From a virus (taxonomy: Duplodnaviria > Heunggongvirae > Uroviricota > Caudoviricetes): 35,456 nucleotides of DNA. This document shows positions 5,796-27,459 of the stretch, piece after piece (the stretch's first letter is position 1; each line of letters opens with the position of its first letter). Location: IMG/VR virus record IMGVR_UViG_3300042691_005779; one strand, written 5' to 3'. The position numbers were made by a program, and so were the translations under genes. The notes under the pieces were generated by a model that was given only the letters and a program-made list of their open reading frames with translations, was not told where the DNA came from and made no database searches.

Positions 5796-6020
5796 TTATT
5801 TCTTTTTAGCAGATTTCTTAACCATCTTACCAGCTTTAGCCTTAGGCTTAACAGGTTTAGGGGCAGGTTTAGCATACTTACCTTTACCAGCTTGCTTATC
5901 TAGAGCATCAGCCATCTTAGTAGCACGTGCATCTCTATCAGCTTTCTTAATCATCTTGCCTGGTTTCATTTCACTAGGAACCACCTTGTCACCACCTTGA
6001 GCTTTCTTAATCATTTTCAT
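5796..6020 (-). CDS. 74-aa Lys-rich basic protein
   Basis: MKMIKKAQGG N-terminus, KAKAGK, KKK C-terminus. Confidence 0.8.
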   Translation of the reverse strand: MKMIKKAQGGDKVVPSEMKPGKMIKKADRDARATKMADALDKQAGKGKYAKPAPKPVKPKAKAGKMVKKSAKKK

Positions 6021-6021
6021 G

Positions 6022-6360
6022 TTATTTCTTTTTAGAAGATTTTAACTTAGGAGCCATTTCACCACTGCGTTTTTCTATTAATTCAGACTCACGCTTTAAT
6101 GCTGCATTTCTGAAACTTGCTGGATTCATTTCTTTATACGCAGGTGTTTTCTTGTCAAGACCATAAGACTTTTCAGAACGTCCCATACTAGTGGCACCAA
6201 GTTCTTTATCTTTCTTTAACTTAGGAGTCATTCTAGCATTTGCTAGTGTAGCCTCTTGAACTTTAGTCCAAGCACCATTAGGATCCACAGGACCTACACG
6301 CTTGTCAGAAGCTTTTAATCCTGACAGACTGCCCATACCAGCTTTTTTAATCTTTGCCAT
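6022..6360 (-). CDS. Lys-rich basic protein
   Basis: MAKIKKAGMG N-terminus; TAATG overlap with the upstream gene. Confidence 0.8.
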   Translation of the reverse strand: MAKIKKAGMGSLSGLKASDKRVGPVDPNGAWTKVQEATLANARMTPKLKKDKELGATSMGRSEKSYGLDKKTPAYKEMNPASFRNAALKRESELIEKRSGEMAPKLKSSKKK

Positions 6361-6944
6361 TATTTTTTAGTTTTAGCTTTTATTTTCTTTTCTTGTTTCA
6401 ACATAGCAGCTGTAGGCTTCTTTCCAGATCCTTTAGCAGCCCTGATATTATCCCAAAGTCCTCTTTGAGAGTATGAACCATCAGCACGCTTCAACATAGT
6501 CTTACCACCATTTTTATTCTGTGAGTAACCTTGTTGTTTATCTATTACACCCTTTTTTGATTGCTTAGCACTGCTGGCAATCTTTGTTGACTTTGAGCCA
6601 GCTGTGTTATAGAAGTCTTCTCTAGCACCTGAAAATCTTTCTGAGAAAGATGGTCTATCTTTTCCAGGACCAAGTTTTTCAGGAGGGTTTTCTCTATATC
6701 TTTGTTCTAACCCTGCAGCTTTACGTTGTGCGTTTCTTTCTGCAGAGATAGCATTTTTTTGTGCAGCAGGCATTCTACGAGTTATTTGTTTTGTGCCACC
6801 AACAATAGCTGCTTCTTTTGCTGCCTTTTCTCTTGCAACATTTAATAAACTTTTACTAAGTTGGTTTTCTGCAGAAGCCCCCATGTACTTACCTAATAGA
6901 CTTCTGACAATTCCACTCTGTGCCTTTTTAACTGCCTTTTTCAT
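6360..6944 (-). CDS. Lys/Ala-rich basic protein
   Basis: MKKAVKKAQSG N-terminus; NKNGG followed by a GLWDNIRAAKGSGKKPT module. Confidence 0.8.
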   Translation of the reverse strand: MKKAVKKAQSGIVRSLLGKYMGASAENQLSKSLLNVAREKAAKEAAIVGGTKQITRRMPAAQKNAISAERNAQRKAAGLEQRYRENPPEKLGPGKDRPSFSERFSGAREDFYNTAGSKSTKIASSAKQSKKGVIDKQQGYSQNKNGGKTMLKRADGSYSQRGLWDNIRAAKGSGKKPTAAMLKQEKKIKAKTKK

Positions 6945-7242: not shown

Positions 7243-7274
7243 CAAAGATATGTATAATTTAGTTACTGTCCAAA
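7243..7274 (-). promoter_or_regulatory. Bacteroidota housekeeping sigma promoter (-33/-7)
   Basis: Minus strand TTTG (7271-7274), 20-nt spacer, TATCTTTG (7243-7250); 24 nt upstream of ATG 7219. Confidence 0.8.
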
Positions 7275-7549
7275 TTTATTTCAAACACAATGGTAGCAGA
7301 GCTTTTGATGCTTTTGCTTAGGTCCAGTTTGATATGGAATAGATTATGGAATTTTAATAGTTCTTCTAACAACATCTCATTGTACATAGGTACAGAGGCA
7401 GCCAATCTAAAATGGTAGGAGTGAGGATTTTTAGTTATCTCTAATGTAGAAAGCTCATCCACTGATGCAATAATTCCCTCGAGGTGAGCAAAATAAGCAA
7501 GTTCGTTATCTTGCATCACCTCTGGGAAGAATTTCTTGTTAATCTGCAT
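7259..7549 (-). CDS. hypothetical protein
   Basis: 96 aa; TAATG overlap with the Dps-like gene. Confidence 0.75.
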   Translation of the reverse strand: MQINKKFFPEVMQDNELAYFAHLEGIIASVDELSTLEITKNPHSYHFRLAASVPMYNEMLLEELLKFHNLFHIKLDLSKSIKSSATIVFEINLDSN

Positions 7550-7953
7550 TAAGACAAGGTTAATAAGTATTTAGTTTTTGCTGCTTCACCACTCAATGCA
7601 TCTGCTAGATTTGCTATATCGTGATAGTTGTTTGCTTCAGCATAGCTTTTTAATGAAGATGCAAAAGATAAAAGTTTTGACACACATTCATCCCCTGTAC
7701 AATTTGTAAGAGGTTCTATCTTATATGGAGCAGGACGTTTGCCTGTGTATCCCATAAGCTTCTCAATAACACCATCTTTGAAATCATGTACATAATCATA
7801 CAGTCCCCCTAAAGCTTGGTGCTCAGCATAACTCTTTGTTTGCCAATGAGTTAAGTGTAATTGCTCATGGAAATATGTAAGCTTCCCAGCTATTGTTTCC
7901 AAGTTTAATTCTCCTGATTTCATCATCTCATCAGGGAATAATGATTTTGCCAT
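7549..7953 (-). CDS. Dps/ferritin-like protein (DUF5856-like)
   Basis: QLHLTHWQTKSYAEHQALGGLYD...FKDGVIEKLMG matches the Dps H-W...H..L..xY.....D..xE ferroxidase pattern; ends with KYLLTL. Confidence 0.8.
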   Translation of the reverse strand: MAKSLFPDEMMKSGELNLETIAGKLTYFHEQLHLTHWQTKSYAEHQALGGLYDYVHDFKDGVIEKLMGYTGKRPAPYKIEPLTNCTGDECVSKLLSFASSLKSYAEANNYHDIANLADALSGEAAKTKYLLTLS

Positions 7954-7967
7954 TTATGTTGATTTTA

Positions 7968-8453
7968 TTATCCAGGATTAGTTGTAGTGGTAGTTGTAGT
8001 AACAGGTCTAGTTGTTGTAGTTGTTGTTGTAGGTGTTGCTGTAGTAGTGGTAGTAGTAGTTGTATTACTAAAACTTACTTCAGGATCAAAACTAGAACAC
8101 TCACAACCAGCTCCTGCTGTAATAACTGTTGTAGTTCCTGATGCATTTACTGCAGATATAGAACCAGTTACAGCACATATAGTAGCTACTAATAAGTTGG
8201 TACCAACTAAATTTACAGTTTGTGTGCTGTTGTCAACACCAGATCTGTAAGTGATAACACTTGATAGAGCACCTGAAGCAGTTGCTACAACTTGATAAGA
8301 GGTACCACCACTGTTGCACTCGTACCCTTGTACTTGTTGCCAGTTACCCACTTTTGGTTTGTTTCTTCTAAGGATTAAGCTCCCTGGAACTACTCTGCCA
8401 CTACCATCGTAGCGGACATAAGCTTTAAGATCACGATTGTTAATGCTTCCCAT
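7968..8453 (-). CDS. protein with poly-Thr C-terminal tail
   Basis: Ends NTTTTTTTTATPTTTTTTTRPVTTTTTTTNPG (23 Thr in 32 aa). Confidence 0.8.
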   Translation of the reverse strand: MGSINNRDLKAYVRYDGSGRVVPGSLILRRNKPKVGNWQQVQGYECNSGGTSYQVVATASGALSSVITYRSGVDNSTQTVNLVGTNLLVATICAVTGSISAVNASGTTTVITAGAGCECSSFDPEVSFSNTTTTTTTTATPTTTTTTTRPVTTTTTTTNPG

Positions 8454-8469
8454 TTTTTAATTTTTATGG

Positions 8470-9486
8470 TTAATAGTTAAGGTTATATTTTTGTTTTAAA
8501 TTCAATAGTTCTTTTACGTAGTAATGAGTGGCATATTTCTTAGACGTCTCATCTGTGTGCACTACATATAAATGTGTGTCTTCAAAAGGATCTTTACCAG
8601 TGTGGTAGGCCCCTTTGTAGAACGCAGGATATCCCATGTTATGTTGTCCTGTAATTCCTGCATTGTGTAGAAGTGTTGTTCTCTCCAGTTTCTCAATTGG
8701 ATCTGAAGACCAACAGAATTCTAGTTCAGGAATGTTTTTAGTTTCTTGTTCTCTAAGCCAAATGTTCCATAGCACAGCCCACATATCTGCACACCAGCTT
8801 TGAAACCCTTTGTTCTCATCTTTAAAGAACTGTTTGTTTATGTTCTGAAGATACATGCGAATGATAATACAATCATTCATCACCTTCTTCCAAAACTCTG
8901 AGTCTATATTCTTAAGGAAGTATTGTGCTCCTCCTGAATGTTCATTGTTAGCCTCAGCTATTTCTCTGTTGATTCCTATGAGGCTTGTAACCTCTGCAAG
9001 GATATCTCTAGTCTTGTATTCTTCAAGCTTCTCTGGAAGCACATCTTTTATCTTACTATCAAAGTATGAAGCATTGATATAACTGTTTGTGTCAGATAGA
9101 TAGTTTATATCATCATCTTTAAACTCATCAATGTTAAATTTATCTGTAAAGATTACGTCACAGTCACAGTAAAACACTGCTTTGGTGATCATATCAGGAT
9201 TGTCCTGGAAATATCTCATTAAGCAATAGGGACGTAGAATAGGAATATACACTCCTAAATACTCACTAACGTTTCCTGTATCCTTGTAGAAAGCAAATTT
9301 TGCTTCTGGATACAGCTCCATTATCTTCTCCCATTTACCATTGTATTCTCTAAAACTAGGAGTGTACACTAAAACAATTGCCTTGTCTGAATGTCCAAGC
9401 TTCTTCAAGCTTTCCAACCATAGATGTACTTGCCATGTGTAGTAGACATCATCTGGCTGGGCACAGATAAATTTAAGATCCTTCAT
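8470..9486 (-). CDS. GT-A glycosyltransferase resembling plant peptidyl-Ser galactosyltransferase / Hyp arabinosyltransferase (GT96/GT95-like)
   Basis: YYTWQVHLWLESLKKLG, YIPILRPYCLMRYF, VFYCDCDVIF (DxD) and SWCADMWAV follow the order of the SGT1/HPAT motifs as recalled (Y.xWQ, Y.xxN[KR]P, DxD, W.xEMY). Confidence 0.6.
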   Translation of the reverse strand: MKDLKFICAQPDDVYYTWQVHLWLESLKKLGHSDKAIVLVYTPSFREYNGKWEKIMELYPEAKFAFYKDTGNVSEYLGVYIPILRPYCLMRYFQDNPDMITKAVFYCDCDVIFTDKFNIDEFKDDDINYLSDTNSYINASYFDSKIKDVLPEKLEEYKTRDILAEVTSLIGINREIAEANNEHSGGAQYFLKNIDSEFWKKVMNDCIIIRMYLQNINKQFFKDENKGFQSWCADMWAVLWNIWLREQETKNIPELEFCWSSDPIEKLERTTLLHNAGITGQHNMGYPAFYKGAYHTGKDPFEDTHLYVVHTDETSKKYATHYYVKELLNLKQKYNLNY

Positions 9487-9516
9487 ATATGTAGTTTGTT
9501 GGTTTAATTTATACTC

Positions 9517-9660
9517 TTATGGAGCTGCAGTGGTAGTTGTAGTAGTTGTTGTTAAGTTAACGTTACCTGCTACTTGTGTTAATCTTTCTAATTGCTTTGA
9601 TATTTGCCAAAGCAATTTAGCTCTTTGACTCCATCCTATTTGTTGACTTGGTATTGCCAT
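9517..9660 (-). CDS. 47-aa MAIPSxQIGW-family peptide with poly-Thr tail (absent from ORF track)
   Basis: Hand translation: MAIPSQQIGWSQRAKLLWQISKQLERLTQVAGNVNLTTTTTTTTAAP; paralogous to the N-terminus of 10913..11284. Confidence 0.85.
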   Translation of the reverse strand: MAIPSQQIGWSQRAKLLWQISKQLERLTQVAGNVNLTTTTTTTTAAP

Positions 9661-9671
9661 GTTGTTATAAT

Positions 9672-10901
9672 TTAAACGTTACCCATTTGTAATGAACCTT
9701 GTACTCCAGTGAATGGATTAAGTGCAGAGTAAGTTGCTCCAGAGTTTGTAGCATTATGATTGTTACCACTATTATCAGTTAACTGTGCCTCTATATTATT
9801 TCCTTGGAACGTTAATAATACTGTATCTGCTGAACTAGTTAATTGGGAAGTTGGAACTGTAAATCCTGATGTAGAATAAACCGCTGCATTAGTCCATCTA
9901 AAGTTACTCATCAATCCATTGAATCCTGAACTAGGCTCATTACCATAACCAATTGTTAATGGTAAACCATCACTTGAAATAGATCCACTATAAGCAGCAG
10001 TGTTTACCTGAGCACCATTAACAAACATGTAAGCTGTAGATCCTACTCCCATTACACAGATGTGAGTCCATTGTCCTGAAGTAAACGTAACTCCTGAAGC
10101 AAGTAGAGGTGAGTTATTTGCCCAGAAGTATAATGAGCTTCCACTACCCTCAATAGAGATAGCGTTAGGAGCAGGATATGCACCAAAGCTATATGGACGA
10201 GGGAAACCATCAAAGTTAGTTACATTAACAAACATCTCAATAGTGAAATTTCCTACAATATCAAAGTCTGTACTAGCAGCAATGCCTATATACCCTGGTT
10301 CACCTTGGTTTACATTAACTGTCCATCCTTTACCTTGCAAATTTGTTTTAGCTGTAAGACCTGTACCTGTAGGAATAGCATTTGTACCACCAGCTAAATT
10401 TACAGATCCATTCTCTACACCACTACCATCTAACCATTGTAACACATCATTTACAACTTCTTCTGTAAGAGCATTACCATTAAGATCAACATTAGTAAGA
10501 TTTGCTTCAGGTAATGTGATTGATGTAATGCTATTACCACTAAAATCTATAGATGTAAGAGCATTAAATGATGATGCTGATATATCTAGAGCCCCTGCTA
10601 TACCACATTGATCCATGTCAATGTTTTGTAAATTATTAAGTCCTGAAAGATCAGGAATACCAGCTGAGAAATCACTATCATCAAGACGTAATTGCTCAAG
10701 AGCTGTACATCCTGATAAGTTAATAGATGTTAAAGATGGATTACCACTACCATCAATTAGTTCAGTATCACTTACATCTACATTAGTTAATTGCGTAAGT
10801 CCAGATAGATTTACTGTCTGTAAAGAGTTCCAGTCTGCATTAAAAGTTTGCAGATTGGTTAAGTTTTGTAAACTTGTTATTGATGTTATTACTGTTGCCA
10901 T
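9672..10901 (-). CDS. LRR plus LamG (concanavalin A-like) domain protein, putative adhesin or tail component
   Basis: LxxLxxLxxxxN-type repeats in the N-terminal half; FTIEMFV...WTHICV...MFVNG...LTIG...FNGLMSNFRWT in the C-terminal half. Confidence 0.75.
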   Translation of the reverse strand: MATVITSITSLQNLTNLQTFNADWNSLQTVNLSGLTQLTNVDVSDTELIDGSGNPSLTSINLSGCTALEQLRLDDSDFSAGIPDLSGLNNLQNIDMDQCGIAGALDISASSFNALTSIDFSGNSITSITLPEANLTNVDLNGNALTEEVVNDVLQWLDGSGVENGSVNLAGGTNAIPTGTGLTAKTNLQGKGWTVNVNQGEPGYIGIAASTDFDIVGNFTIEMFVNVTNFDGFPRPYSFGAYPAPNAISIEGSGSSLYFWANNSPLLASGVTFTSGQWTHICVMGVGSTAYMFVNGAQVNTAAYSGSISSDGLPLTIGYGNEPSSGFNGLMSNFRWTNAAVYSTSGFTVPTSQLTSSADTVLLTFQGNNIEAQLTDNSGNNHNATNSGATYSALNPFTGVQGSLQMGNV

Positions 10902-10912
10902 GTTAGTTAAGA

Positions 10913-11284
10913 TTAATCAGTACCCCAAAAAGATAAATAAGTTACTTTAGTTGCATCACTAAAACATAATTGTACAGTGTGTGCTGTATTCTCAGCAGTG
11001 TAAAGATGCTCTATGTCTACACCAATACCAGTAGTGATTGTACCATTACTTGTTGTACCATCACCCCATGTAGCAGTGTATGTTATATCTTCTGATGATT
11101 CAACAGTCATTCCAAAGCTAAGTCCACCTATTGTAGTGTTAGTTACAAAACTAATACAGTTTGGATCTGGTGGTGTTTGACCAATATTATATATAACTTT
11201 AGTTAGATACTCCAATTGCTTGGATATCTGCCACAAAAGATTTTCTTCTGTGCTCCAGCCTATCTGTCTAGATGGTATTGCCAT
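10913..11284 (-). CDS. MAIPSxQIGW N-terminal motif plus PKD-like domain
   Basis: YTATWGDGTTS...IEHLY is a PKD-like WGDG...HxY signature. Confidence 0.7.
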   Translation of the reverse strand: MAIPSRQIGWSTEENLLWQISKQLEYLTKVIYNIGQTPPDPNCISFVTNTTIGGLSFGMTVESSEDITYTATWGDGTTSNGTITTGIGVDIEHLYTAENTAHTVQLCFSDATKVTYLSFWGTD

Positions 11285-11286
11285 TT

Positions 11287-12384
11287 TTAGTAAGTTTTGT
11301 TCAATGTAAAAATATCACTGTAGATACTGTTTCCTGTGCTAGCAGCACCCCATTGAACAGTGATATCTAATGTATTAGAAATTGTTGTATCGAATGTTGT
11401 GTTGTTCACAACGTTAAATGAAAAACCTTCTATAACACCATTCACTGTTTTAACATAGTGAAATGTTCCTAAAGAAACAATAGATGCTACACCAGCAGTT
11501 CCTAGTTGTCTAATAGTGAAGTTTACATTTAAAGAAAACACATTGTTTGTAATGTTTGTAATAGGCTGTGCTCCACTGTCAAGTAAGATTACAGAACCTG
11601 CCTTCACTCTGATCCTTATTGTTTGGTTGTTTGTAACATTTAAAATACCAGCCATTATTGCTACAAAGCTATCTCCTACACTAAATCCATTAGCAGGCAC
11701 ACTTAACGTACCCACACCACCATTAATAAGACTAGTTTCTACAACAGTGTTAGTAACAGGAGTACTGTTTGCTGTCTGAGCAAATAGTCCATAGTTCACT
11801 GATACAGGAAGTGTTGGAGAAACTCCACTAGTTCCTGATGTGCCTGTAGTTCCAGAAGTCCCTGACGTGCCTGAAGTTCCTCTAGTGCCAGAGGTACCAG
11901 AAGAACCAGTTAGTCCTGATGTACCAGATGTACCATTAGAACCATTACCACCAGCAGCACCATTAAGGTTTACACCCCAAGAACTGTAAGTACCAGATCC
12001 TTCCACTGTAGAAGGAGCACCAAACACCAAAACCCCTGTAGCAGGGTTGTAAGATGTTATCATTGAAACCTGATGATTATTAACATCATAGGCTATCAAT
12101 ATATCTTGAGCAGTGGTGTATGCCAATCCTGTACCTACAGTGATTGTTCCACCTGTTCCTAATGTAAATGATGTAGAAGATGTGGTTTGATATCTGTCTC
12201 CAGATGCACCAGTTAATCCAGATGTACCAGATGTGCCTGAGACACCACTAGTTCCTGAAGACCCAGTGGTACCTGATGTACCAGCTACGTTTTTGATCAG
12301 GCTATCTAAATTAAGCCACCCCTTGTAACCATTACAAGGTTCGCATCTCTGATCCCAAAAACCAGCTTTAATAAATGTGGGCAT
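11287..12384 (-). CDS. Gly-Thr-Ser triplet-repeat fibre-like protein
   Basis: Two (G-T/S-S)n tracts flank a ~85-aa domain shared with the giant fibre; beta-rich C-terminal domain. Confidence 0.75.
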   Translation of the reverse strand: MPTFIKAGFWDQRCEPCNGYKGWLNLDSLIKNVAGTSGTTGSSGTSGVSGTSGTSGLTGASGDRYQTTSSTSFTLGTGGTITVGTGLAYTTAQDILIAYDVNNHQVSMITSYNPATGVLVFGAPSTVEGSGTYSSWGVNLNGAAGGNGSNGTSGTSGLTGSSGTSGTRGTSGTSGTSGTTGTSGTSGVSPTLPVSVNYGLFAQTANSTPVTNTVVETSLINGGVGTLSVPANGFSVGDSFVAIMAGILNVTNNQTIRIRVKAGSVILLDSGAQPITNITNNVFSLNVNFTIRQLGTAGVASIVSLGTFHYVKTVNGVIEGFSFNVVNNTTFDTTISNTLDITVQWGAASTGNSIYSDIFTLNKTY

Positions 12385-12406
12385 ACTAGTGCAATTAAAT
12401 AATTTT

Positions 12407-12437
12407 CAAAGATATGTTACTTTTTACTATTAACAAT
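12407..12437 (-). promoter_or_regulatory. Bacteroidota-type promoter
   Basis: ATTG (12434-12437), 19-nt spacer, TATCTTTG (12407-12414); upstream of ATG 12384. Confidence 0.7.
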
Positions 12438-15671: not shown

Positions 15672-16049
15672 TTAATGTTTTATAGTTATTAATCTTTTAT
15701 ATTCTTTACCAGAGATGTCAATTAATTCAAGAGTGTAATCTCCAGTTTTAACATCTGAGTAGTCTAATGTTCTGACAACCAATGTGTTATCAGCTGTAAA
15801 GCCTACAGACTTTTTAACATCATTGTTTAAATCAATTAACCTTAATGAGTATTTAGCTCCTGGTGTAAGGCTCATTGTTACATCCACCTTATCTTTAATT
15901 AGTGCTGTAGATAAACTTACAATTGCTGTAGATGTAGATACCTTACCTAAATCAATAACATGAGGGGCAGGAATTTCCACCTTTGTACAAGCAATCACTA
16001 TAAAAATAATTAGTAAATAGACAGTTAATATTTTGTTTGTTTCTTTCAT
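15672..16049 (-). CDS. lipoprotein with Ig-like / T9SS C-terminal-domain-like fold
   Basis: Lipobox VIA-C; YSLRLIDL...LDYSDVKTGDYTLELID...KRLITIK. Confidence 0.6.
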   Translation of the reverse strand: MKETNKILTVYLLIIFIVIACTKVEIPAPHVIDLGKVSTSTAIVSLSTALIKDKVDVTMSLTPGAKYSLRLIDLNNDVKKSVGFTADNTLVVRTLDYSDVKTGDYTLELIDISGKEYKRLITIKH

Positions 16050-17743
16050 TAGAAGTTATTATATCCTGTTAATTTAATAGTTGTTGTATTTAGTTTTACA
16101 CCCAACTGGTTACCCTTGTTATCAGAAGCATCTAAGTTAGATGTAACTTTGATAGCTGAGTTAATGTCCAGCCCACTCTTGAGTGTAGAGAACACCAGTT
16201 TGAAAGGAGTGAGATCCTTTCCTGTATATGGAGTTTTTAATTCTCTATCTACAGCACCAAACTTAATACGTCCATCATGATTGTTTACAAACACTAACCA
16301 CGTAGGCATATCTGCTTTGATAGATTCAAACTTCACCTTGGTTGGATCATATACAAACTCAAATTGTAAGCCTGATAGATTAGCCCCATTAGTGTTTACA
16401 TTCACTGGAATAGTAAACTGGTCACTAGTAAGTGTTAAGTTATTTAAACTAACCTCTACATCAGGTAAAGTTTCATTAGGTGTATTAACAAACGTAGAGA
16501 ATGTAGTTACTGTTTGAGCTTGTGTTCTAATTGAGCTGTGTGATCTGTTGATGTCTCCAGGAACTAAGTAACAGATGCTCAGTGGTTTAGCTACATTACT
16601 TGTTCTGAAATGCACTGTATACTTATCTGTAACAGCTTTCCAAGATGTAGAAGATAAGCTATCATATGTAGCACTTAGAAACGCAGGAAGGTTTGTTAAT
16701 GTCTGACCAGCAATAGGTGTAAAGATTGTGTCAGCTCCTACAGCCTGTGCAAATAGTGCTGTTACATCTCCACCATCCAGTGTCTTATTATCATTAACGT
16801 CAGCTGCCATATACCCAATACCAGAAGCAATGTTGCTATTGGTAAATGTACCATCTAGGTTTTGCTTCATAAATTCTGAAACAGCAGCTGTATAGTCACT
16901 TACAGTGATTGCTCTATTAAGCATTGCTGGGATGCTATCTGAAACCACGTTTACATAAATCTTGTACGCTGTGTTAGGAAGCAACTCACTACCAAGAGTG
17001 AATGCACCATTAACACCTGGAGTAACTGTAGCTCTCACTATGTTTGTAGCTGAGTCAACAAATACTAATCTAGGTTGGTATCCTCCTGTTAGACCACTGC
17101 TTAACTTTAGTTCCCCATTAACAAGAGCATTAGCCACTGGTGTTAATCCCACCCAAGCTGAGTTAGGTTTAGGCATTCTTGTTTCATAATATGTTCCTCC
17201 ATAATTACCACTGAATGCTTGAGCAAAGTTGTAATAGATAGAGTCATACGCAAAACCTGCTTGCACTTGCTCCACTCTAAATCTGATGTTACAGAATGTA
17301 CCATCTACTAAGTCTGCACTTGATACAGCCCATATACGATTGATGGCTCTACCACCAGTTGCATTATATCCATAGCTTAGATTGTTACTGTTTGTCTGTG
17401 AAGACTCAGTTGTATTCTGTGCAGTTCTGTTTAGGAAGTAGCCAGGATAGTATTGATTCTGATAAGATGTCTGTGCTCCCTGAGGAACAGCATTGCCAAA
17501 TGTTAAGTCTATCATATTGATAGCTGACATCTGATGTTGGAAGTCTAGGTAGAAAGAGCGTACAGGTTTACCTGCAGCTGCTTTATATATTAACGACACC
17601 TGTACAGTGTCACCTTTCTTGATAGCCCCACCACCAATATTAGTGCTAATAACATTAGGACTGAGTCTTAATTCAGGGTTTTGACCATAAGATGATGTCA
17701 CAAATATTGTAAAAAGTGTGACAAAAAATAATAGTTTTTTCAT
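16049..17743 (-). CDS. secreted protein with cohesin-like and dockerin/EF-hand-like domains
   Basis: Signal peptide; DVNDNKTLDGGD and GDIN Ca-loop motifs; C-terminal FTIPVNV...LSGLQFEFVYDPTKVKF cohesin signature. Confidence 0.7.
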   Translation of the reverse strand: MKKLLFFVTLFTIFVTSSYGQNPELRLSPNVISTNIGGGAIKKGDTVQVSLIYKAAAGKPVRSFYLDFQHQMSAINMIDLTFGNAVPQGAQTSYQNQYYPGYFLNRTAQNTTESSQTNSNNLSYGYNATGGRAINRIWAVSSADLVDGTFCNIRFRVEQVQAGFAYDSIYYNFAQAFSGNYGGTYYETRMPKPNSAWVGLTPVANALVNGELKLSSGLTGGYQPRLVFVDSATNIVRATVTPGVNGAFTLGSELLPNTAYKIYVNVVSDSIPAMLNRAITVSDYTAAVSEFMKQNLDGTFTNSNIASGIGYMAADVNDNKTLDGGDVTALFAQAVGADTIFTPIAGQTLTNLPAFLSATYDSLSSTSWKAVTDKYTVHFRTSNVAKPLSICYLVPGDINRSHSSIRTQAQTVTTFSTFVNTPNETLPDVEVSLNNLTLTSDQFTIPVNVNTNGANLSGLQFEFVYDPTKVKFESIKADMPTWLVFVNNHDGRIKFGAVDRELKTPYTGKDLTPFKLVFSTLKSGLDINSAIKVTSNLDASDNKGNQLGVKLNTTTIKLTGYNNF

Positions 17744-21194: not shown

Positions 21195-24100
21195 ATGCCC
21201 AACAGTTACACATATTTTAAGCAAGAGGTGAAGGAGTGGTTCAGGGATAATGTTCCTGCTAACACAAAAGTGTTAGACGTAGGTCCTGGACAGGGTACAT
21301 ATGGTAAGCTTTTATTTGAACTTGGGTATGCAATAGATGCTGTTGAGGTGTGGGATCCATACATTAGTGAGTATAAACTGTGGGAGTATTATGGTAATGT
21401 ACATATTGCTGATATACGTGAGTTTGATTGGTCTGAGTATGAGTTCATCATCCTAGGTGATGTGCTAGAACACCTAACAGCTGAAGAAGGACAGAAGCTC
21501 ATCACTGATATTGCCATGGCTAGGAAGCAATGTTTGGTTGCTATTCCCTATATGATGGAGCAAGATGGTGAGGAGTATGGTAATACATATGAGACCCACC
21601 TGCAAGCAGACCTTACAAAGGAGGTGATGGCAGAGCGTTATCCTACACTAGACTTGCTCTATGCCAATGATTACTATGGATATTATGTAAGTAAGAAGAT
21701 AGCAGACAAAGCATTTGTACTCTATGCCACAGAAGCTTATTATGATATTGTGACAGCCTGTGTTAAGTCACTCACTACATTCAGTCAGTATCCAGTGTTT
21801 GTATACATGCTTAACTCTGACAAGAAGGTGCCCAGGGCTACAACTATCAGGTGGAACTGTGATATAGATCCAATAGAATACAATACCAAAGAACAGTTCT
21901 ACATCAATAGAACAGATGATAGAGTATATAACATCCTCATACAGCGTCCACTGATTGTTATAGACTGTCTGAAGTATGCTGACACTGTAATGTATGTAGA
22001 CAGCGATAGTGTTGCTACACCTTTTGTAGATAAAGTGTTTAACTACCCTGTCTCTGAGTATCCCCTATTTACATCTAGCATCTATGACCAGATGTTCCTA
22101 AATGGAAAAGGAGACCTTGAGAAACCTATTTGTGATCTATTAGATATACAGAGAGGCAGGTATATACAAACAGGATACTTCCTAGCCAATAGAGATTGTC
22201 TACCATTCTTACAAGAGTGGGCTAGTTTATGTATTGATGCAAGAGTGATGGGTGATTTCAAACTCTATGCTCCATTCCATGAAGAGACATTAGCTAATGC
22301 AACACTTTGGAAGAATGATTATAACAAATCTCTACCACTCATCTATACTAATGCTAGCTTAGATGTATTAGAGAACATAGATAAATATGAGTTTGGTAAA
22401 GAGCATTGGGAATGGTTTAAACTACCTGATAGTAAGCATGAGTTGTTCTTCTACCATGGAGAGAAGAGACCAGATGTAATGTACAAGATGATTAGTAGAT
22501 TGAAAGGTAATAAGAGAGTGTTATTTCTAGCACCTCACCTATCTACAGGTGGTATGCCTGCGTTCCTATTAAAGAGAATACAGGAGATAAAAGACCATGT
22601 AGAGATATATGTAGTTGAGTATCAATGCCACAGCTTAGACTTTGTTGTACAACGTAATGCTATCAAAGAGATTGTAGGATCTAACTTCACTACACTGTAT
22701 GAGAACAAGATGGAGCTGTTTGATATTATTGATAGCTGGAAGCCAGACATCATTCATCTAGATGAACCTGCTGAAAGATATAACAGAGAGATGATTACTA
22801 AGTTGTATGATGTAAACAGATCATACAAGATTGTAGAGACATTCCATGATGTAGCATTCAAGCCTGAAGAAAAGATGTTTCAGTCAGAAGCATATGCATT
22901 CTGTACACCATACCACCTCAATAAGTTTACAAACTTACAGGGTTATAGAAAGGTGATTGAGTTTCCTTTAGAAAACAAGAAACCAACTAACACACGTAAG
23001 ATAATAGCTAAGAACAAGGTAGGGTTTGCTCCATTCAGGACTAGTGTTGTAAATGTAGGACTGTGGACTCCAGGTAAAAATCAAGCAGAGGGAATTGAAA
23101 TAGCTAAGAAGTATCCTCATATGGATTTCTATTTTGTAGGTAATCAAGCTGGTAACTTCAAAGATTACTGGGAACCTTTAATGAAAGACTTACCAAAGAA
23201 TGTATATGTTCTAGGAGAGAAGAGCAATGTAGAAGACTATTTAACAGCTGCAGATATATTCATGTTCAACAGCACATGGGAATGTAATCCTCTTGTACTT
23301 AGAGAAGCAATCAGTTATGCACTACCTGTTGTAGCTAGAAACCTACCACAGTATGAAGATATGTTTACTAAGTATCTTCTACCTATAGATAGTGACTTTG
23401 ATGAAATATACAATCAGTATAGAAATGGTATTGTTCAGTATGACATACCAGACATTACATTTAGACAAGACAACATAGACTTCTACAATCATGTAGATTC
23501 TATCTCTCTACAGCCACAAGATGTAACCATCACACAGCATTACATAGTTAATCCATTTCTTGAGATAACAGGTGTGAGTGATAGTAACTTCAAAATAGAA
23601 TACTATGATGAGCAGGGTGTATGTCACTACAGTAGTGTAATCAAAACCAACCAGTGGGTAAAGTTAAACAGAAGTTATTACACTAAATGGAGAAACAAGA
23701 TATGGCAAGATGGCAATCTTATACACGACTACACACTAGACTATACAGACAAGACTGTGTTCATCTACTTTGATAGTGAAAGTCTTGGTGATACAATTGC
23801 ATGGATGCCATACTGTTTAGAGTTTAAGAAGAAGCACAACTGTCATGTTGTTGTAAGTACATACAAAAACTTCTTGTTTGAGAAGGCCTATCCAGAGCTT
23901 GAGTTTGTTGCACCTGGAACACCTGTGAATGCTTATGGAGAATACATAATAGGTTGGAGATATAACACAGACCAAGAGCCTGAGTTATGTAACACCATCC
24001 CTCTACAGAAAGCAGCTACTAATATACTTGGACTAGAATACAAAGAGATAAGACCTAGAATTGCTTATACACCTGTACAGTTTGAAGACAGGACTAAGTA

Positions 24101-24587
24101 TGTAACTATTGCTACGAATAGTACAACAGGATGTAAGTTTTGGACTAGAGAAGGGTGGCAAGAAGTGATTAACTATCTAGTGAGTCAAGGATACAAAGTG
24201 TACAATGTATCTAAGGAAAGAAATCCATTTGATAACTGTGTACAGATAGAAGACACATCAATGGATAACACCATCAATATGATTTGGAACAGTAAGTTCT
24301 TTATAGGACTTAGTTCAGGATTAAGCTGGTTAGCTTGGGCTTTAGGTAAACAAGTGGTGATGATTTCTAACTTCACCAAAGCAGACCATGAGTTTCAATC
24401 TAACTGTATTAGAATTACAGATGAGAGCGTGTGTCATGGATGTTGGAACAATAAGAACTTCAAGTTTGATAGAGGAGACTGGAACTGGTGCCCTATCTGG
24501 AAGGGTTATGACAAACAGTTTGAATGCCATAACACCATCACAGCAGATAAAGTTATAGCTTCCCTTCAGCCTTTAATTGTTCTCTAA
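21195..24587 (+). CDS. four-domain enzyme: SAM methyltransferase, GT-A, GT4 (GT-B), Aah/TibC-like protein O-heptosyltransferase
   Basis: VLDVGPGQG and GDVLEHL; YVDSDSV; FLAPHLSTGGMP and ECNPLVLREA; SLGDTIAWMPY, FIGLSSGLSWLAWA and CHGCW...WCP...QFEC. Confidence 0.8.
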   Translation: MPNSYTYFKQEVKEWFRDNVPANTKVLDVGPGQGTYGKLLFELGYAIDAVEVWDPYISEYKLWEYYGNVHIADIREFDWSEYEFIILGDVLEHLTAEEGQKLITDIAMARKQCLVAIPYMMEQDGEEYGNTYETHLQADLTKEVMAERYPTLDLLYANDYYGYYVSKKIADKAFVLYATEAYYDIVTACVKSLTTFSQYPVFVYMLNSDKKVPRATTIRWNCDIDPIEYNTKEQFYINRTDDRVYNILIQRPLIVIDCLKYADTVMYVDSDSVATPFVDKVFNYPVSEYPLFTSSIYDQMFLNGKGDLEKPICDLLDIQRGRYIQTGYFLANRDCLPFLQEWASLCIDARVMGDFKLYAPFHEETLANATLWKNDYNKSLPLIYTNASLDVLENIDKYEFGKEHWEWFKLPDSKHELFFYHGEKRPDVMYKMISRLKGNKRVLFLAPHLSTGGMPAFLLKRIQEIKDHVEIYVVEYQCHSLDFVVQRNAIKEIVGSNFTTLYENKMELFDIIDSWKPDIIHLDEPAERYNREMITKLYDVNRSYKIVETFHDVAFKPEEKMFQSEAYAFCTPYHLNKFTNLQGYRKVIEFPLENKKPTNTRKIIAKNKVGFAPFRTSVVNVGLWTPGKNQAEGIEIAKKYPHMDFYFVGNQAGNFKDYWEPLMKDLPKNVYVLGEKSNVEDYLTAADIFMFNSTWECNPLVLREAISYALPVVARNLPQYEDMFTKYLLPIDSDFDEIYNQYRNGIVQYDIPDITFRQDNIDFYNHVDSISLQPQDVTITQHYIVNPFLEITGVSDSNFKIEYYDEQGVCHYSSVIKTNQWVKLNRSYYTKWRNKIWQDGNLIHDYTLDYTDKTVFIYFDSESLGDTIAWMPYCLEFKKKHNCHVVVSTYKNFLFEKAYPELEFVAPGTPVNAYGEYIIGWRYNTDQEPELCNTIPLQKAATNILGLEYKEIRPRIAYTPVQFEDRTKYVTIATNSTTGCKFWTREGWQEVINYLVSQGYKVYNVSKERNPFDNCVQIEDTSMDNTINMIWNSKFFIGLSSGLSWLAWALGKQVVMISNFTKADHEFQSNCIRITDESVCHGCWNNKNFKFDRGDWNWCPIWKGYDKQFECHNTITADKVIASLQPLIVL

Positions 24588-24939
24588 TTTGTGTAGCAGA
24601 TATATCATGTATATCTTGAGGTGGTACGTGTTCTACAACATCATAACCAATACCTCTACCAATATTAACAGATTCAATATCAGGTATAATCATGAGTCTA
24701 ACTCTTCCTTCCTCAATGAGATCCATTAATTCTTCTGTTAGATTCATCATAACTTGCCATGGAGACCAAGGATTCTTCTCATCAGGAGTAACATCTCTTA
24801 CACAGAGGAGAACATTCTTACCTTCATTTAATTTCTGATCAATCAACCATCTGTGACCAGGATGCCATGGTTGCCATCTTCCTATGAACATAGCATAACC
24901 ACTTCCATTACCATTACCTTTTGCTAGAATATTCTGCAT
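24553..24939 (-). CDS. HxGH nucleotidyltransferase (cytidyltransferase-like), candidate minimal ATP sulfurylase
   Basis: MFIGRWQPWHPGH and ISATQIR; directly downstream of the APS kinase gene. Confidence 0.7.
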   Translation of the reverse strand: MQNILAKGNGNGSGYAMFIGRWQPWHPGHRWLIDQKLNEGKNVLLCVRDVTPDEKNPWSPWQVMMNLTEELMDLIEEGRVRLMIIPDIESVNIGRGIGYDVVEHVPPQDIHDISATQIREQLKAEGKL

Positions 24940-25361
24940 ACATGTTTGATTTTATCTACACTATCTTCAATAGAAGTGTTAGATGTATTAATAATTAAAT
25001 CTACATCATCTTTCTGTGGTAGCTCAAAGTCTGCCACTTTAAATTGATCTCTACCTCTATCTTCTTCATATGTGAGATAGATCCATTTAACATCTCTGGT
25101 TAGACTGCTTAGATACTCTCTAGCTTCTTCATAAGGATACACTAGTGATAACACTATGTTATAGTTTCTTGCTTTATTCAAATAGTAAGCAATATCACTA
25201 GCTCTGTTTAAGTTTTTAATCCTACCTTCTTTACTGTAGTCTTTGTTCTTAAACATATCTCTTAGTTCATCACCATCTATGTGGTGGAATCCCTCTGCTA
25301 TAAACTTTTTAGCAAGAGTTGTCTTGCCTGATGCAGGCTGTCCAAATAATACTATTATCAT
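24924..25361 (-). CDS. cysC: adenylylsulfate (APS) kinase-like P-loop kinase
   Basis: GQPASGKTT, IDGDELR, DYSKEGRIKNL, SLVYPYEEARE, FELP. Confidence 0.8.
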   Translation of the reverse strand: MIIVLFGQPASGKTTLAKKFIAEGFHHIDGDELRDMFKNKDYSKEGRIKNLNRASDIAYYLNKARNYNIVLSLVYPYEEAREYLSSLTRDVKWIYLTYEEDRGRDQFKVADFELPQKDDVDLIINTSNTSIEDSVDKIKHVCRIF

Positions 25362-26176
25362 TTTGTATATCTAAATTGTTGAAAGAACCATTGGTAATTA
25401 TCCCATATCCAGTTTGTAACGTCCTTACCTAATAAGGCTTTTGCTCTAGAAGGAACAGGTTCTAATCTAGTACGAATAGTGTGGTCACCAAAGCTACCAT
25501 ACACCTCATCATCTTCTTTAGTAACTTGTTCTATATTATCCCAATCATGTTGGTAATAAGGAATGCCTAGGTATTGATATATCCTTTGCATCTCTGTATC
25601 TGGATATAGACACAAGTCTTCAAACTTAACAAACAATACATGTTTGTCTATCCCTAGCCTAAACATCTCTTGTAATCTTTCTATAGCTAGACCAACAGGT
25701 TGACTCTGTGCCCAGATGTCTATACGTTTAGGAACTGTTGTTCCTTGCATCTGTGCCCAATTAAGAATAGCATTAGCCTTATCAGGATTCTTTCTGTAGT
25801 TGTTCTCCATAGAAGCAAAGACATCACGTAGGTCTCTCACCATACATATAATCTTTGGCTCTGGGTGGATAAAGTTTAGGAAGTCATAATGTATTCCCCA
25901 TCCTCTAGATTTGTCTACAACATATTTCTTATCTGTAATAGCATTGTAATAAGCAATCATTCCTTCTTTACAGAATGCTTGGAATGCAGCTTTCATTACT
26001 TGTGGATCTTGAGCTTGGAACTCAGGACTGTCTGTATAGTTTCCTCTAGCAGCAAACACTAACTCAAGTACACCACTAGTTGGTGTAGCATAGATGTCTG
26101 GATTTTGTGCTAATATGTTTTGTAACAATGTTGAACCTGCTCTTGGTAAAGAGCTTTGATAGAATATATTCTCCAT
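25358..26176 (-). CDS. PAPS-dependent sulfotransferase
   Basis: 5-prime PSB loop SLPRAGSTLL; 3-prime PB motif MVRDLRDVFASM; KFEDL. Confidence 0.85.
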   Translation of the reverse strand: MENIFYQSSLPRAGSTLLQNILAQNPDIYATPTSGVLELVFAARGNYTDSPEFQAQDPQVMKAAFQAFCKEGMIAYYNAITDKKYVVDKSRGWGIHYDFLNFIHPEPKIICMVRDLRDVFASMENNYRKNPDKANAILNWAQMQGTTVPKRIDIWAQSQPVGLAIERLQEMFRLGIDKHVLFVKFEDLCLYPDTEMQRIYQYLGIPYYQHDWDNIEQVTKEDDEVYGSFGDHTIRTRLEPVPSRAKALLGKDVTNWIWDNYQWFFQQFRYTK

Positions 26177-26177
26177 A

Positions 26178-27053
26178 TTAAGATTTTAAAGATGCTATGA
26201 TTTGATCTACATTAAATATTTCTTTCTCATTGTTATATGGAAACTCTAATAGGTTCCCTGATATATCAAACTTCTGCAAGTATGCATTGCGTAACTCAGG
26301 CTTCTTAGTGAATGGATTACATACAATGTTATCATGTACATCATATCCAAACACCTCAGGCTTATTACACACCCATAGCACTGTAGAAGGTTTATTCATA
26401 GCAGCAGCTGCATGATGACCAAAGCTATCCATCAACAATCTCTTACTACTAAGTTCTATAAGAACAGCTAGTGCTCTGAAGTTATCTGTAACAGGAGTGG
26501 TGAAGTCATAACCAATCTGATCTTCTCTTCTTATGTGTACAATGTTATAATCATTTTTAAATTCATGTATAACATTCTCCACTACATAACTAGGAATGTC
26601 TCTAGCCCATGAGTATTTCAACTCTTGTCCTGGAGCACCACCATTTGTTTGTAACAATAAAATAGGTCTGTCAGATGTAAACTTCTGACCAAAGAACTTA
26701 CGTTCTCTATCTGTAAGATAGAGCTTAGGAATAACACTCTCAGGTGTAGGAACACCAAACATTCTTGTCCATGTATGACTTAAGTGTTCATTCTGCATAA
26801 GATGTTCTGTCTGTAGATATGGATCATGTGCAAACACTTTGAACTCTTTACCCTCTATAAAATCTTCATAGAAGTATTGTGTCATGCCAAAAGAAAATGA
26901 GCGATACACAAAGGGGTTGTTTATAAACACCTCTGGGTAACCGCTCATTACAATTAATTGACTATCAGGATATTGTTTGTGAATTGCTTCACAAACAGAT
27001 GTAGCAAGTATACACTTACCTATACCACCATTGATTTGGAAAATGATATTCAT
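26178..27053 (-). CDS. GT9-like (heptosyltransferase fold) glycosyltransferase
   Basis: GGIGKCILAT...YPDSQLIV...NNPFV and DSFGHHAAAAMNKPSTVLW. Confidence 0.7.
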   Translation of the reverse strand: MNIIFQINGGIGKCILATSVCEAIHKQYPDSQLIVMSGYPEVFINNPFVYRSFSFGMTQYFYEDFIEGKEFKVFAHDPYLQTEHLMQNEHLSHTWTRMFGVPTPESVIPKLYLTDRERKFFGQKFTSDRPILLLQTNGGAPGQELKYSWARDIPSYVVENVIHEFKNDYNIVHIRREDQIGYDFTTPVTDNFRALAVLIELSSKRLLMDSFGHHAAAAMNKPSTVLWVCNKPEVFGYDVHDNIVCNPFTKKPELRNAYLQKFDISGNLLEFPYNNEKEIFNVDQIIASLKS

Positions 27054-27111: not shown

Positions 27112-27459
27112 TTATTCTTCAACAGCTGTAGTTGTGGTTGTTGTGGTTGTAGGACCAGCCAAAACAGCCTCAGCAAGATCTACAAAAGCTGTAGTATCTA
27201 AGTCTGCATACTGTACTCTAAAACTTTCTGCACCTTGTTGACTTGGTAGCCAATCAGAGAAAAGATCATAGAATGTGTTGATAGCATGATACTGCTTAGG
27301 GCCTGTATAACCTTCTGGTTTGTTTGCCCATACATCATCTACGCAAGCGTCTACTAGAGCTTGGAAGTCAGAAACATTTGCCTGTACGTTTTGGGTATCA
27401 GTGATTACCTGCACTGTACCAAAGCCAAAGATGTGAAGTGTGTTAAATGGATTTGCCAT
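27112..27459 (-). CDS. acidic protein with poly-Thr tail (tail-fibre assembly-like position)
   Basis: Ends AGPTTTTTTTAVEE; lies immediately downstream of the giant fibre gene. Confidence 0.75.
   Translation of the reverse strand: MANPFNTLHIFGFGTVQVITDTQNVQANVSDFQALVDACVDDVWANKPEGYTGPKQYHAINTFYDLFSDWLPSQQGAESFRVQYADLDTTAFVDLAEAVLAGPTTTTTTTTAVEE

Follow-up and report, generated by a model that had tools for sequence, protein, structure and literature searches.

What does a phage-encoded glycosyltransferase modify when the genes on both sides of it end in runs of threonine (Thr) codons? This question is raised by positions 7968–9660 of a stretch of Caudoviricetes DNA (IMG/VR record IMGVR_UViG_3300042691_005779; the whole stretch of 35,456 nucleotides (nt) that was analysed is hereafter called the 35-kb window), where the open reading frame (ORF) for a predicted glycosyltransferase of 338 amino acids (aa) lies between two small ORFs with poly-Thr C-termini. 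In our view the 338-aa protein is probably a cytoplasmic, DxD-dependent transferase that starts the O-glycosylation of poly-Thr tags on virion proteins, an explanation in which the sugar, its linkage and the priming step are what we infer. It draws above all on the joint gain and loss of enzyme and tags in other phages, and on the predicted fold of the enzyme. The three ORFs lie on the minus strand, with intergenic gaps of 30 nt (47-aa ORF to 338-aa ORF) and 16 nt (338-aa ORF to 161-aa ORF):

9517–9660, minus strand: 47-aa 'anchor A plus T8' gene, candidate acceptor; residues 1–30 are a conserved module, and the Thr run is at 9529–9552.
8470–9486, minus strand: 338-aa protein of phrog_4417, predicted to be a soluble GT-A glycosyltransferase with a predicted fold closest to SGT1/HPAT (from the ORF, the PHROG match and the AlphaFold2 model).
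7968–8453, minus strand: 161-aa 'anchor B plus domain plus poly-Thr tail' gene, candidate acceptor; Thr runs are at 7980–8063.

A preliminary description of this locus, made from the DNA alone, had pointed out the Thr-ending neighbours and quoted four motifs from the 338-aa gene product. Both observations hold: the ORF list gives T8, followed by AAP, at the C-terminus of the 47-aa ORF and 23 Thr among the last 32 residues of the 161-aa ORF (runs T8, T7 and T7), and all four motifs are present in the translation, where they coincide with the most conserved positions of the family alignment. The Thr runs are encoded by mixed ACA, ACT and ACC codons, and are therefore not simple triplet repeats.

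The 338-aa protein matched phrog_4417, a family annotated as of unknown function (E 8.4e-55; protein residues 4–321 against profile positions 1–287 of 293), and searches by sequence or profile against Pfam, NCBIfam and the PDB returned no match. Its relatives number 2203 at E ≤ 0.001 in a collection of 5.8 billion proteins, or 765 among the 50%-identity representatives. When 50,697 phage records were searched by tblastn, 77 contained a homologue; these include phages of Lactobacillus, Enterococcus, Staphylococcus, Lactococcus, Clostridium and Chryseobacterium, with no Mycobacterium phage among the 77, and of the isolates, Chryseobacterium phage MA9V-3 comes closest, at 35% identity. In a family alignment of 84 sequences (A1), residues Y80, D108, D110, Y136, F257, H274, K291 and Y323 are invariant, and the most conserved positions are Y80 and R85 in YIPxxRP, D108 and D110 in DxD, and Q229 and D234 in QSWCADMW. 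A candidate role can be proposed for two of these sites:

9157–9165, minus strand: DxD motif (D108-C-D110), invariant in the 84-sequence alignment.
8665–8667, minus strand: invariant His274 (same alignment), candidate third metal ligand.

By comparison with GT-A enzymes generally, the DxD motif would be the metal and nucleotide-sugar binding site, and its likeness to the DxD...H arrangement of GT8-type enzymes makes His274 a candidate for the third metal ligand. No transmembrane-like or signal segment was found in the enzyme (the highest 19-residue hydropathy is 0.71) and the first beta-strand of its model begins at residue 4, so that the protein is predicted to be soluble and cytoplasmic. The fusion partners of family members are domains of the GT2, GT6 and GT32 types, a pair formed by O-FucT and a GlcNAc-transferase, methyltransferases and radical SAM/SPASM domains, while PqqD, which serves in peptide recognition, is found in a related bacterial cluster; these partners would fit the building of glycans on peptide substrates. 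We regard it as highly probable that the 338-aa protein is an active GT-A transferase, catalysis being predicted from these features. As a separate observation, the bacterial relatives (P0236 and the Atlas cluster 'PqqD family protein') are fused to, or associated with, radical SAM/SPASM and PqqD, which suggests that ribosomal peptides may be glycosylated outside phages as well.

The AlphaFold2 (AF2) model of the enzyme has a GT-A fold, with a pLDDT of 97.5 and a pTM of 0.93. The preliminary description had likened the protein to plant SGT1 and HPAT enzymes and proposed a fold search, whose outcome agrees with it. Among the AlphaFold models of Swiss-Prot, Arabidopsis SGT1 came first (E 1.8e-10, TM-score 0.61), followed by HPAT1–3, PLENTY, RDN1/2 and NOD3 (TM-score 0.58–0.61), and all of them outranked the GT8 enzymes galactinol synthase and glycogenin (TM-score 0.44–0.49). 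In the ESM Atlas, clusters in which 100% of the members carry PF23452, the Pfam model of the HPATs, matched at a TM-score of 0.71 and a bacterial PqqD-HPAT cluster at 0.70; in some related Atlas clusters PF23452 is found on 10–58% of the members. Several 'HPAT-like domain' entries were also among the fold matches in the AFDB clusters. In its predicted structure, the enzyme resembles SGT1/HPAT more than any other named family.

The plant and algal enzymes concerned are SGT1/SERGT1 (family GT96), a peptidyl-serine alpha-galactosyltransferase, and HPAT1–3, RDN and PLENTY (family GT95), which are hydroxyproline (Hyp) O-arabinosyltransferases. Over the whole length of the phage enzyme no predicted fold comes closer than theirs, and both sides have a DxD-type GT-A core. 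HPAT and SGT1 are priming enzymes, i.e. they attach the initial sugar directly to amino acids with a hydroxyl group within low-complexity repeats, and the comparative evidence from phages given below suggests that the phage enzyme does likewise. Unlike them, however, the phage enzyme lacks a type II membrane anchor and would operate in the bacterial cytoplasm rather than in the Golgi lumen, and its presumed acceptor is Thr, not Ser or Hyp.

Among solved structures, no GT95 or GT96 structure was returned, and for this reason the best matches were retaining GT-A enzymes (Z 12.8–14.2 over 220–238 residues), namely glycogenin, which was the top match, Skp1 alpha-galactosyltransferase, LgtC, WbbM, UGGT and GlyE. 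Of these, glycogenin primes on a protein hydroxyl and GlyE, from the pneumococcal serine-rich-repeat pathway, acts on a Ser-rich glycoprotein. The phage enzyme, in contrast, shares only about 10% sequence identity with the GT8-type enzymes (glycogenin, LgtC, GlyE and Skp1 alpha-galactosyltransferase), and the GT8 profile PF01501 gave no match to it or to the 84 family members, so that the resemblance to GT8 is at the level of the fold only. A retaining mechanism, suggested by the GT8-, GT6- and GT24-like neighbours, may apply to the phage enzyme too. A further solved match (Z 11.2) is A64R of chlorovirus PBCV-1, likewise a virus-encoded cytoplasmic GT-A enzyme for the glycans of the virus's own major capsid protein; A64R, however, is much smaller (about 200 residues aligned) belongs to a different family, and it builds N-linked-type glycans on a eukaryotic virus.

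If the enzyme acts on the Thr tails, what are the proteins that carry them? In 80 IMG/VR loci with a transferase 68–94% identical to that of the window, every Thr/Ser run on the transferase strand is confined to the few kb around the transferase, and most of them sit in small ORFs that flank it directly. An upstream ORF with a Thr/Ser run was recovered in 58 related loci. In 55 of them it is an orthologue of the 47-aa ORF, 44–65 aa long and ending 25–37 nt before the transferase, and in the remaining three the upstream position is taken by a protein of 130–369 aa. These orthologues open with a conserved N-terminal module of 30 residues, followed by a variable linker, by one or two runs of Thr/Ser and by 2–3 final residues. 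The same module of about 30 residues, anchor A, begins two proteins of the window, the 47-aa ORF and the following one:

10913–11284, minus strand: 123-aa protein with the anchor-A N-terminal module and no Thr tail.

This protein shows anchor A to be a reusable N-terminal unit, and in relatives the module begins collagen-like fibre proteins; it is probably a virion-docking module. On the downstream side, the relatives have one to three paralogues with a nearly invariant 46-residue N-terminal module ending in a Cys-Cys or Cys motif, after which the payload differs: it may be Thr/Ser runs by themselves, such runs together with a small domain, or just a domain. The 161-aa protein of the window has 442 homologues, all unnamed, and its AF2 model (mean pLDDT 54) is confident only in the N-terminal module (residues 10–42). 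To judge from their sequences, both flanking gene families look like a docking module joined to a displayed payload, which beside the enzyme is the Thr tail.

Across the entire 35-kb window, scanning in six frames turned up such runs in just three ORFs, the two flanking the enzyme and one more, a pattern well beyond what chance would give:

27112–27459, minus strand: 115-aa protein ending in T8 and then AVEE, third candidate acceptor (six-frame scan).

Pfam and PHROG searches with this 115-aa protein gave no match. Its gene is located between a giant fibre gene (27480 to the end of the window) and an operon encoding a sulfotransferase, an adenosine 5'-phosphosulfate (APS) kinase and a cytidylyltransferase-like protein, and is directly upstream of the latter.

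The preliminary description had also suggested looking at the synteny of poly-Thr genes with homologues of the enzyme, and here the result was positive: poly-Thr genes accompany the homologues in distant phages and co-vary with them. Six isolates were examined, Enterococcus phage phiFL1A and Lactobacillus phage iLp84 as whole genomes, and Enterococcus phage VPE25, Staphylococcus phage vB-SscS-F1, Clostridium phage phiCTP1 and MA9V-3 as 14–21-kb loci around the homologue; poly-Thr and transferase occur together in all six. In phiFL1A the homologue, gp51, is encoded between the major tail protein and tail chaperone genes, and in the whole 38.8-kb genome poly-Thr occurs on just two proteins, the major tail protein and gp45 (the major head protein, phrog_544), at the C-terminus of each. 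In iLp84 poly-Thr is limited to three proteins: the major capsid protein, the major tail protein and one of 125 aa encoded directly upstream of the homologue. In the other four phages poly-Thr is found on tail proteins or small proteins adjoining the transferase. The phiCTP1 case was picked up by a looser poly-Thr criterion and not by the stricter one; there, runs of T5 and T6 end the protein directly upstream of the transferase, and poly-Thr is present on two further proteins of the locus. A divergent branch of the family, with about 36% identity to the window enzyme, shows the same association, with poly-Thr/Ser ORFs in 78 of 85 loci and with 648 of the 657 runs on the transferase strand, 449 of them within 2 kb upstream; an acceptor in this branch would be the major tail protein phrog_1407, whose C-terminal domains are joined by Thr runs.

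Two side observations concern individual phages. In vB-SscS-F1, a protein annotated as 'assembly protease' and encoded upstream of the major capsid gene (L087, 3047–4162) has long Thr runs about 25 residues before its C-terminus and, provided that it is correctly annotated, would be a surprising acceptor. In VPE25 (L086, 8460–8620) and phage nattely (L200, 1520–1685), the major capsid gene ends in GCA AAG TAA, and the −1 frame past this stop holds 40–45 mostly Thr codons, with no start codon and with a stop about 120 nt before the transferase gene; the ACN differences between the two phages are synonymous and the Thr codons are kept. The arrangement resembles a programmed −1 frameshift at the last sense codon, by which some of the capsid subunits would receive a poly-Thr tail.

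Phages occur in natural pairs with and without the transferase, which makes it possible to ask whether the tags depend on it. For a first set, IMG/VR was searched with the core of the phiFL1A major tail protein, its Thr tail removed, which yielded 27 loci of 64–100% identity. In each of the 12 Enterococcus-phage loci with the transferase, the tail protein has a Thr tail and so does the capsid-position protein, 2 kb away; in all 15 without it both tails are absent, and no Thr run is found anywhere in the locus. The tail proteins of these 15 loci end a few residues past a shared GETTGDY motif. On a tree of the tail-protein core this distribution takes four changes of state, and at least three when only strongly supported branches are counted. 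For a second set, the core of the iLp84 capsid protein was used and 70 usable Lacticaseibacillus-phage loci were obtained, many of them 94–100% identical. The capsid Thr tail is present in all 36 loci with the transferase and absent from all 34 without it. Tag and enzyme have been gained or lost together, several times, and on two separate genes at once; a functional dependence accounts for this and linkage alone does not, and it is very likely that the enzyme is functionally tied to the Thr tags.

The same data bear on two other ways of accounting for the locus. One could suppose that the target of the enzyme is not a protein but, for instance, host teichoic acid, lipopolysaccharide (LPS), capsule or phage DNA, and that the poly-Thr stretches are unmodified flexible linkers travelling in the same mobile module. 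Phage transferases do often target O-antigen, teichoic acids or DNA, Thr-rich interdomain linkers are common, and some of the acceptors considered here have poly-Thr between folded domains. Nevertheless, the enzyme is predicted to be soluble, its gene is found within head and tail gene blocks, and linkage alone is insufficient for two gene tails, on capsid and tail proteins 2 kb apart, that come and go with the enzyme at least three times, which makes this explanation quite improbable. It is also conceivable that catalysis has been lost and that the protein is a chaperone or assembly factor binding the poly-Thr tails, considering that co-variation by itself indicates a functional link and not catalysis. 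We hold this to be very improbable, as the DxD, His274 and other residues of the nucleotide-sugar site of GT-A enzymes are invariant in 84 diverse sequences, and the protein is scarce in infected cells. In published VPE25 proteomics (PMC11100838, supplementary file 4) the homologue has 0–18 spectral counts, as against about 1400 for the capsid protein, an abundance that fits an enzyme rather than a structural protein.

The enzyme could, on the other hand, act on the poly-Thr proteins and yet only extend a glycan there, the first sugar being added by a host enzyme or by another transferase of the phage. An example of the latter would be the 1130-aa protein among the following genes of the window:

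21195–27053, strand not specified: further glycan-building genes, encoding a 1130-aa GT4 plus GT9-like protein, a sulfotransferase, an APS kinase and a nucleotidyltransferase (Pfam).
21195–24587, plus strand: 1130-aa multi-domain protein with GT4 (Glycos_transf_1) and GT9-like heptosyltransferase domains (Pfam).

The presence of these additional domains, the fusion of family members to other transferases and the mostly glycan-extending character of the GT8 and GT24 enzymes among the best solved matches would all be consistent with such a role. The isolates, however, speak for priming: the larger proteins of unknown function in phiFL1A and iLp84 yielded no further transferase domain, and yet tag and enzyme co-vary perfectly, which favours priming by the enzyme itself unless a host enzyme primes. 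Furthermore, its nearest predicted folds, HPAT and SGT1, and also the top solved match, glycogenin, are enzymes that prime on protein. We consider a purely extending role rather unlikely. The 1130-aa protein, for its part, is possibly a glycan-extending enzyme, and it may be speculated that the sulfotransferase, APS kinase and GT4/GT9-like genes extend or sulfate the glycan of the Thr tags.

Several points weigh against a priming transferase for poly-Thr tags and should be set beside the evidence in its favour. The nearest solved structures are mostly glycan-extending GT8 and GT24 enzymes, an outcome that the preliminary description had named as contrary to its proposal; it is found among solved structures only, where GT95 and GT96 are missing from the matches, and not in the predicted-structure libraries. 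PF23452 (family cut-off 23.9 bits) gave no match to the window enzyme at E ≤ 1 or to the 84 family members at E ≤ 0.01. Searched at E ≤ 10 against five homologue-bearing phage records, it again gave no match, although this search has little power, as the control genomes were also silent. Since PF23452 is blind to the enzyme and its relatives, the link to GT95/GT96 is a structural one, resting on the model, and the enzyme is not assigned as a member of either family. The window, as said, encodes other transferases that could be the primer. Two of the 34 transferase-free Lacticaseibacillus-phage loci (L246 and L248) retain poly-Thr on the major tail protein; in these mosaic exceptions the Thr tag exists without a nearby enzyme gene, and the rule is not absolute. 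In addition, many of the loci are closely related, so that the raw counts overstate the number of independent events, the minimum from the tree being three to four changes. Finally, the glycan on these proteins is a predicted one. The mucin-type priming transferase encoded beside its own acceptors, as first proposed, is thus supported by the fold and by the co-variation with poly-Thr, while priming and modification themselves stay conditional.

On balance, we favour the following mechanism for a priming transferase. The 338-aa protein would be a soluble, cytoplasmic, metal-dependent (DxD) GT-A glycosyltransferase, which uses a nucleotide sugar and transfers the first sugar onto the hydroxyls of Thr (and Ser) in the poly-Thr tracts of virion proteins, before or during assembly, with mucin-like glycan tufts on the particle as the result. 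In this lineage the acceptors would be the small dedicated proteins encoded on either side of the enzyme gene, each consisting of a conserved N-terminal anchor module, a poly-Thr tail and 2–4 terminal residues. Thr as the acceptor, the catalytic activity and priming rather than extension are the presumptive elements of this scheme, and the biological role might be, for example, shielding, solubility or adhesion.

Characterization of glycosylated phage particles has so far been limited to a few mycobacteriophages. Che8, Corndog and Myrna are reported to attach glycans to the proteins of their capsid and tail tube by means of their own transferases, and antibody binding is thereby reduced (Freeman et al., 2023, as summarized in PMC12363180 and PMC10877033). 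With respect to the general phenomenon, these summaries make outdated the statement of the preliminary description that no characterized phage example was known. The likeness to the system proposed here is that phage-encoded transferases act on the phage's own capsid and tail-tube proteins. The hosts, in contrast, are Bacteroidota and Firmicutes in our case, the enzyme family may be different from that of Che8 gp110 and Corndog gp38, given the lack of Mycobacterium phages among the tblastn matches, and neither the poly-Thr tag nor dedicated small proteins of the 'anchor plus tail' kind feature in the summaries in PMC12363180 and PMC10877033. Full-text searches, with most subscription journals outside their coverage, found no literature linking the enzyme family or poly-Thr tails to phage glycosylation.

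A wider reading, which we put forward tentatively and regard as possible but rather doubtful as a whole, is that poly-Thr stretches are portable 'glyco-tags' read by a single HPAT/SGT1-like family in phages of at least two bacterial phyla, tag and enzyme being added or dropped as a unit. The tag would be placed on capsid, tail-tube or fibre proteins and, in the present lineage of freshwater Bacteroidota phages, also on dedicated anchor-plus-tag proteins of 45–170 aa. In the phage of the window, the nearby GT4/GT9-like, sulfotransferase and APS-kinase genes may extend and sulfate the glycans into a sulfated, mucin-like coat. On this reading, peptide O-glycosyltransferases would form a much larger family of prokaryotes and viruses, with the plant families GT95 and GT96 as its eukaryotic branch. 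If this were true, an enzyme family different from that of the mycobacteriophages, with a simple and recognizable tag, would glycosylate many phages of Firmicutes and Bacteroidota, including culturable phages of Enterococcus, Lacticaseibacillus, Staphylococcus and Chryseobacterium, and phrog_4417 and a large set of unannotated small ORFs would acquire a function. There would be consequences for phage therapy, through antibody recognition, particle stability and interaction with mucus, and a compact enzyme-plus-tag pair would become available for the cytoplasmic O-glycosylation of recombinant proteins. The plant extensin-modifying enzymes would gain a prokaryotic and viral context. The question is open to direct testing, since nature supplies pairs of phages that have or lack the module.

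As for the surroundings of the locus, the enzyme gene and its two neighbours are part of a longer run of genes:

7259–12436, minus strand: probable single transcription unit of eight co-directional genes (gaps ≤ 30 nt).

According to Pfam and PHROG, the unit contains a collagen-like fibre gene, the 123-aa protein, an LRR/LamG protein, the 47-aa ORF, the transferase, the 161-aa protein, a DUF5856 protein and a 96-aa protein. Promoter motifs of the Bacteroidota type (TTG-N-TAnnTTTG) flank the eight-gene run, at 12407 and 7243, and the run is a probable operon; a scan for sigma-70 promoters and terminators did no better than on shuffled sequence. Together with MA9V-3 as the closest isolate, the promoter motifs point to a host among the Bacteroidota.

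Two other features of the window should be mentioned. At 5796–6944 (minus strand) there are three consecutive small Lys-rich proteins of 74, 112 and 194 aa with repeated KKAQ/GG-like starts, and at 16049–17743 (minus strand) a 564-aa protein ends in a C-terminal cohesin domain (Pfam, E 9.4e-09), which is unusual for a phage.

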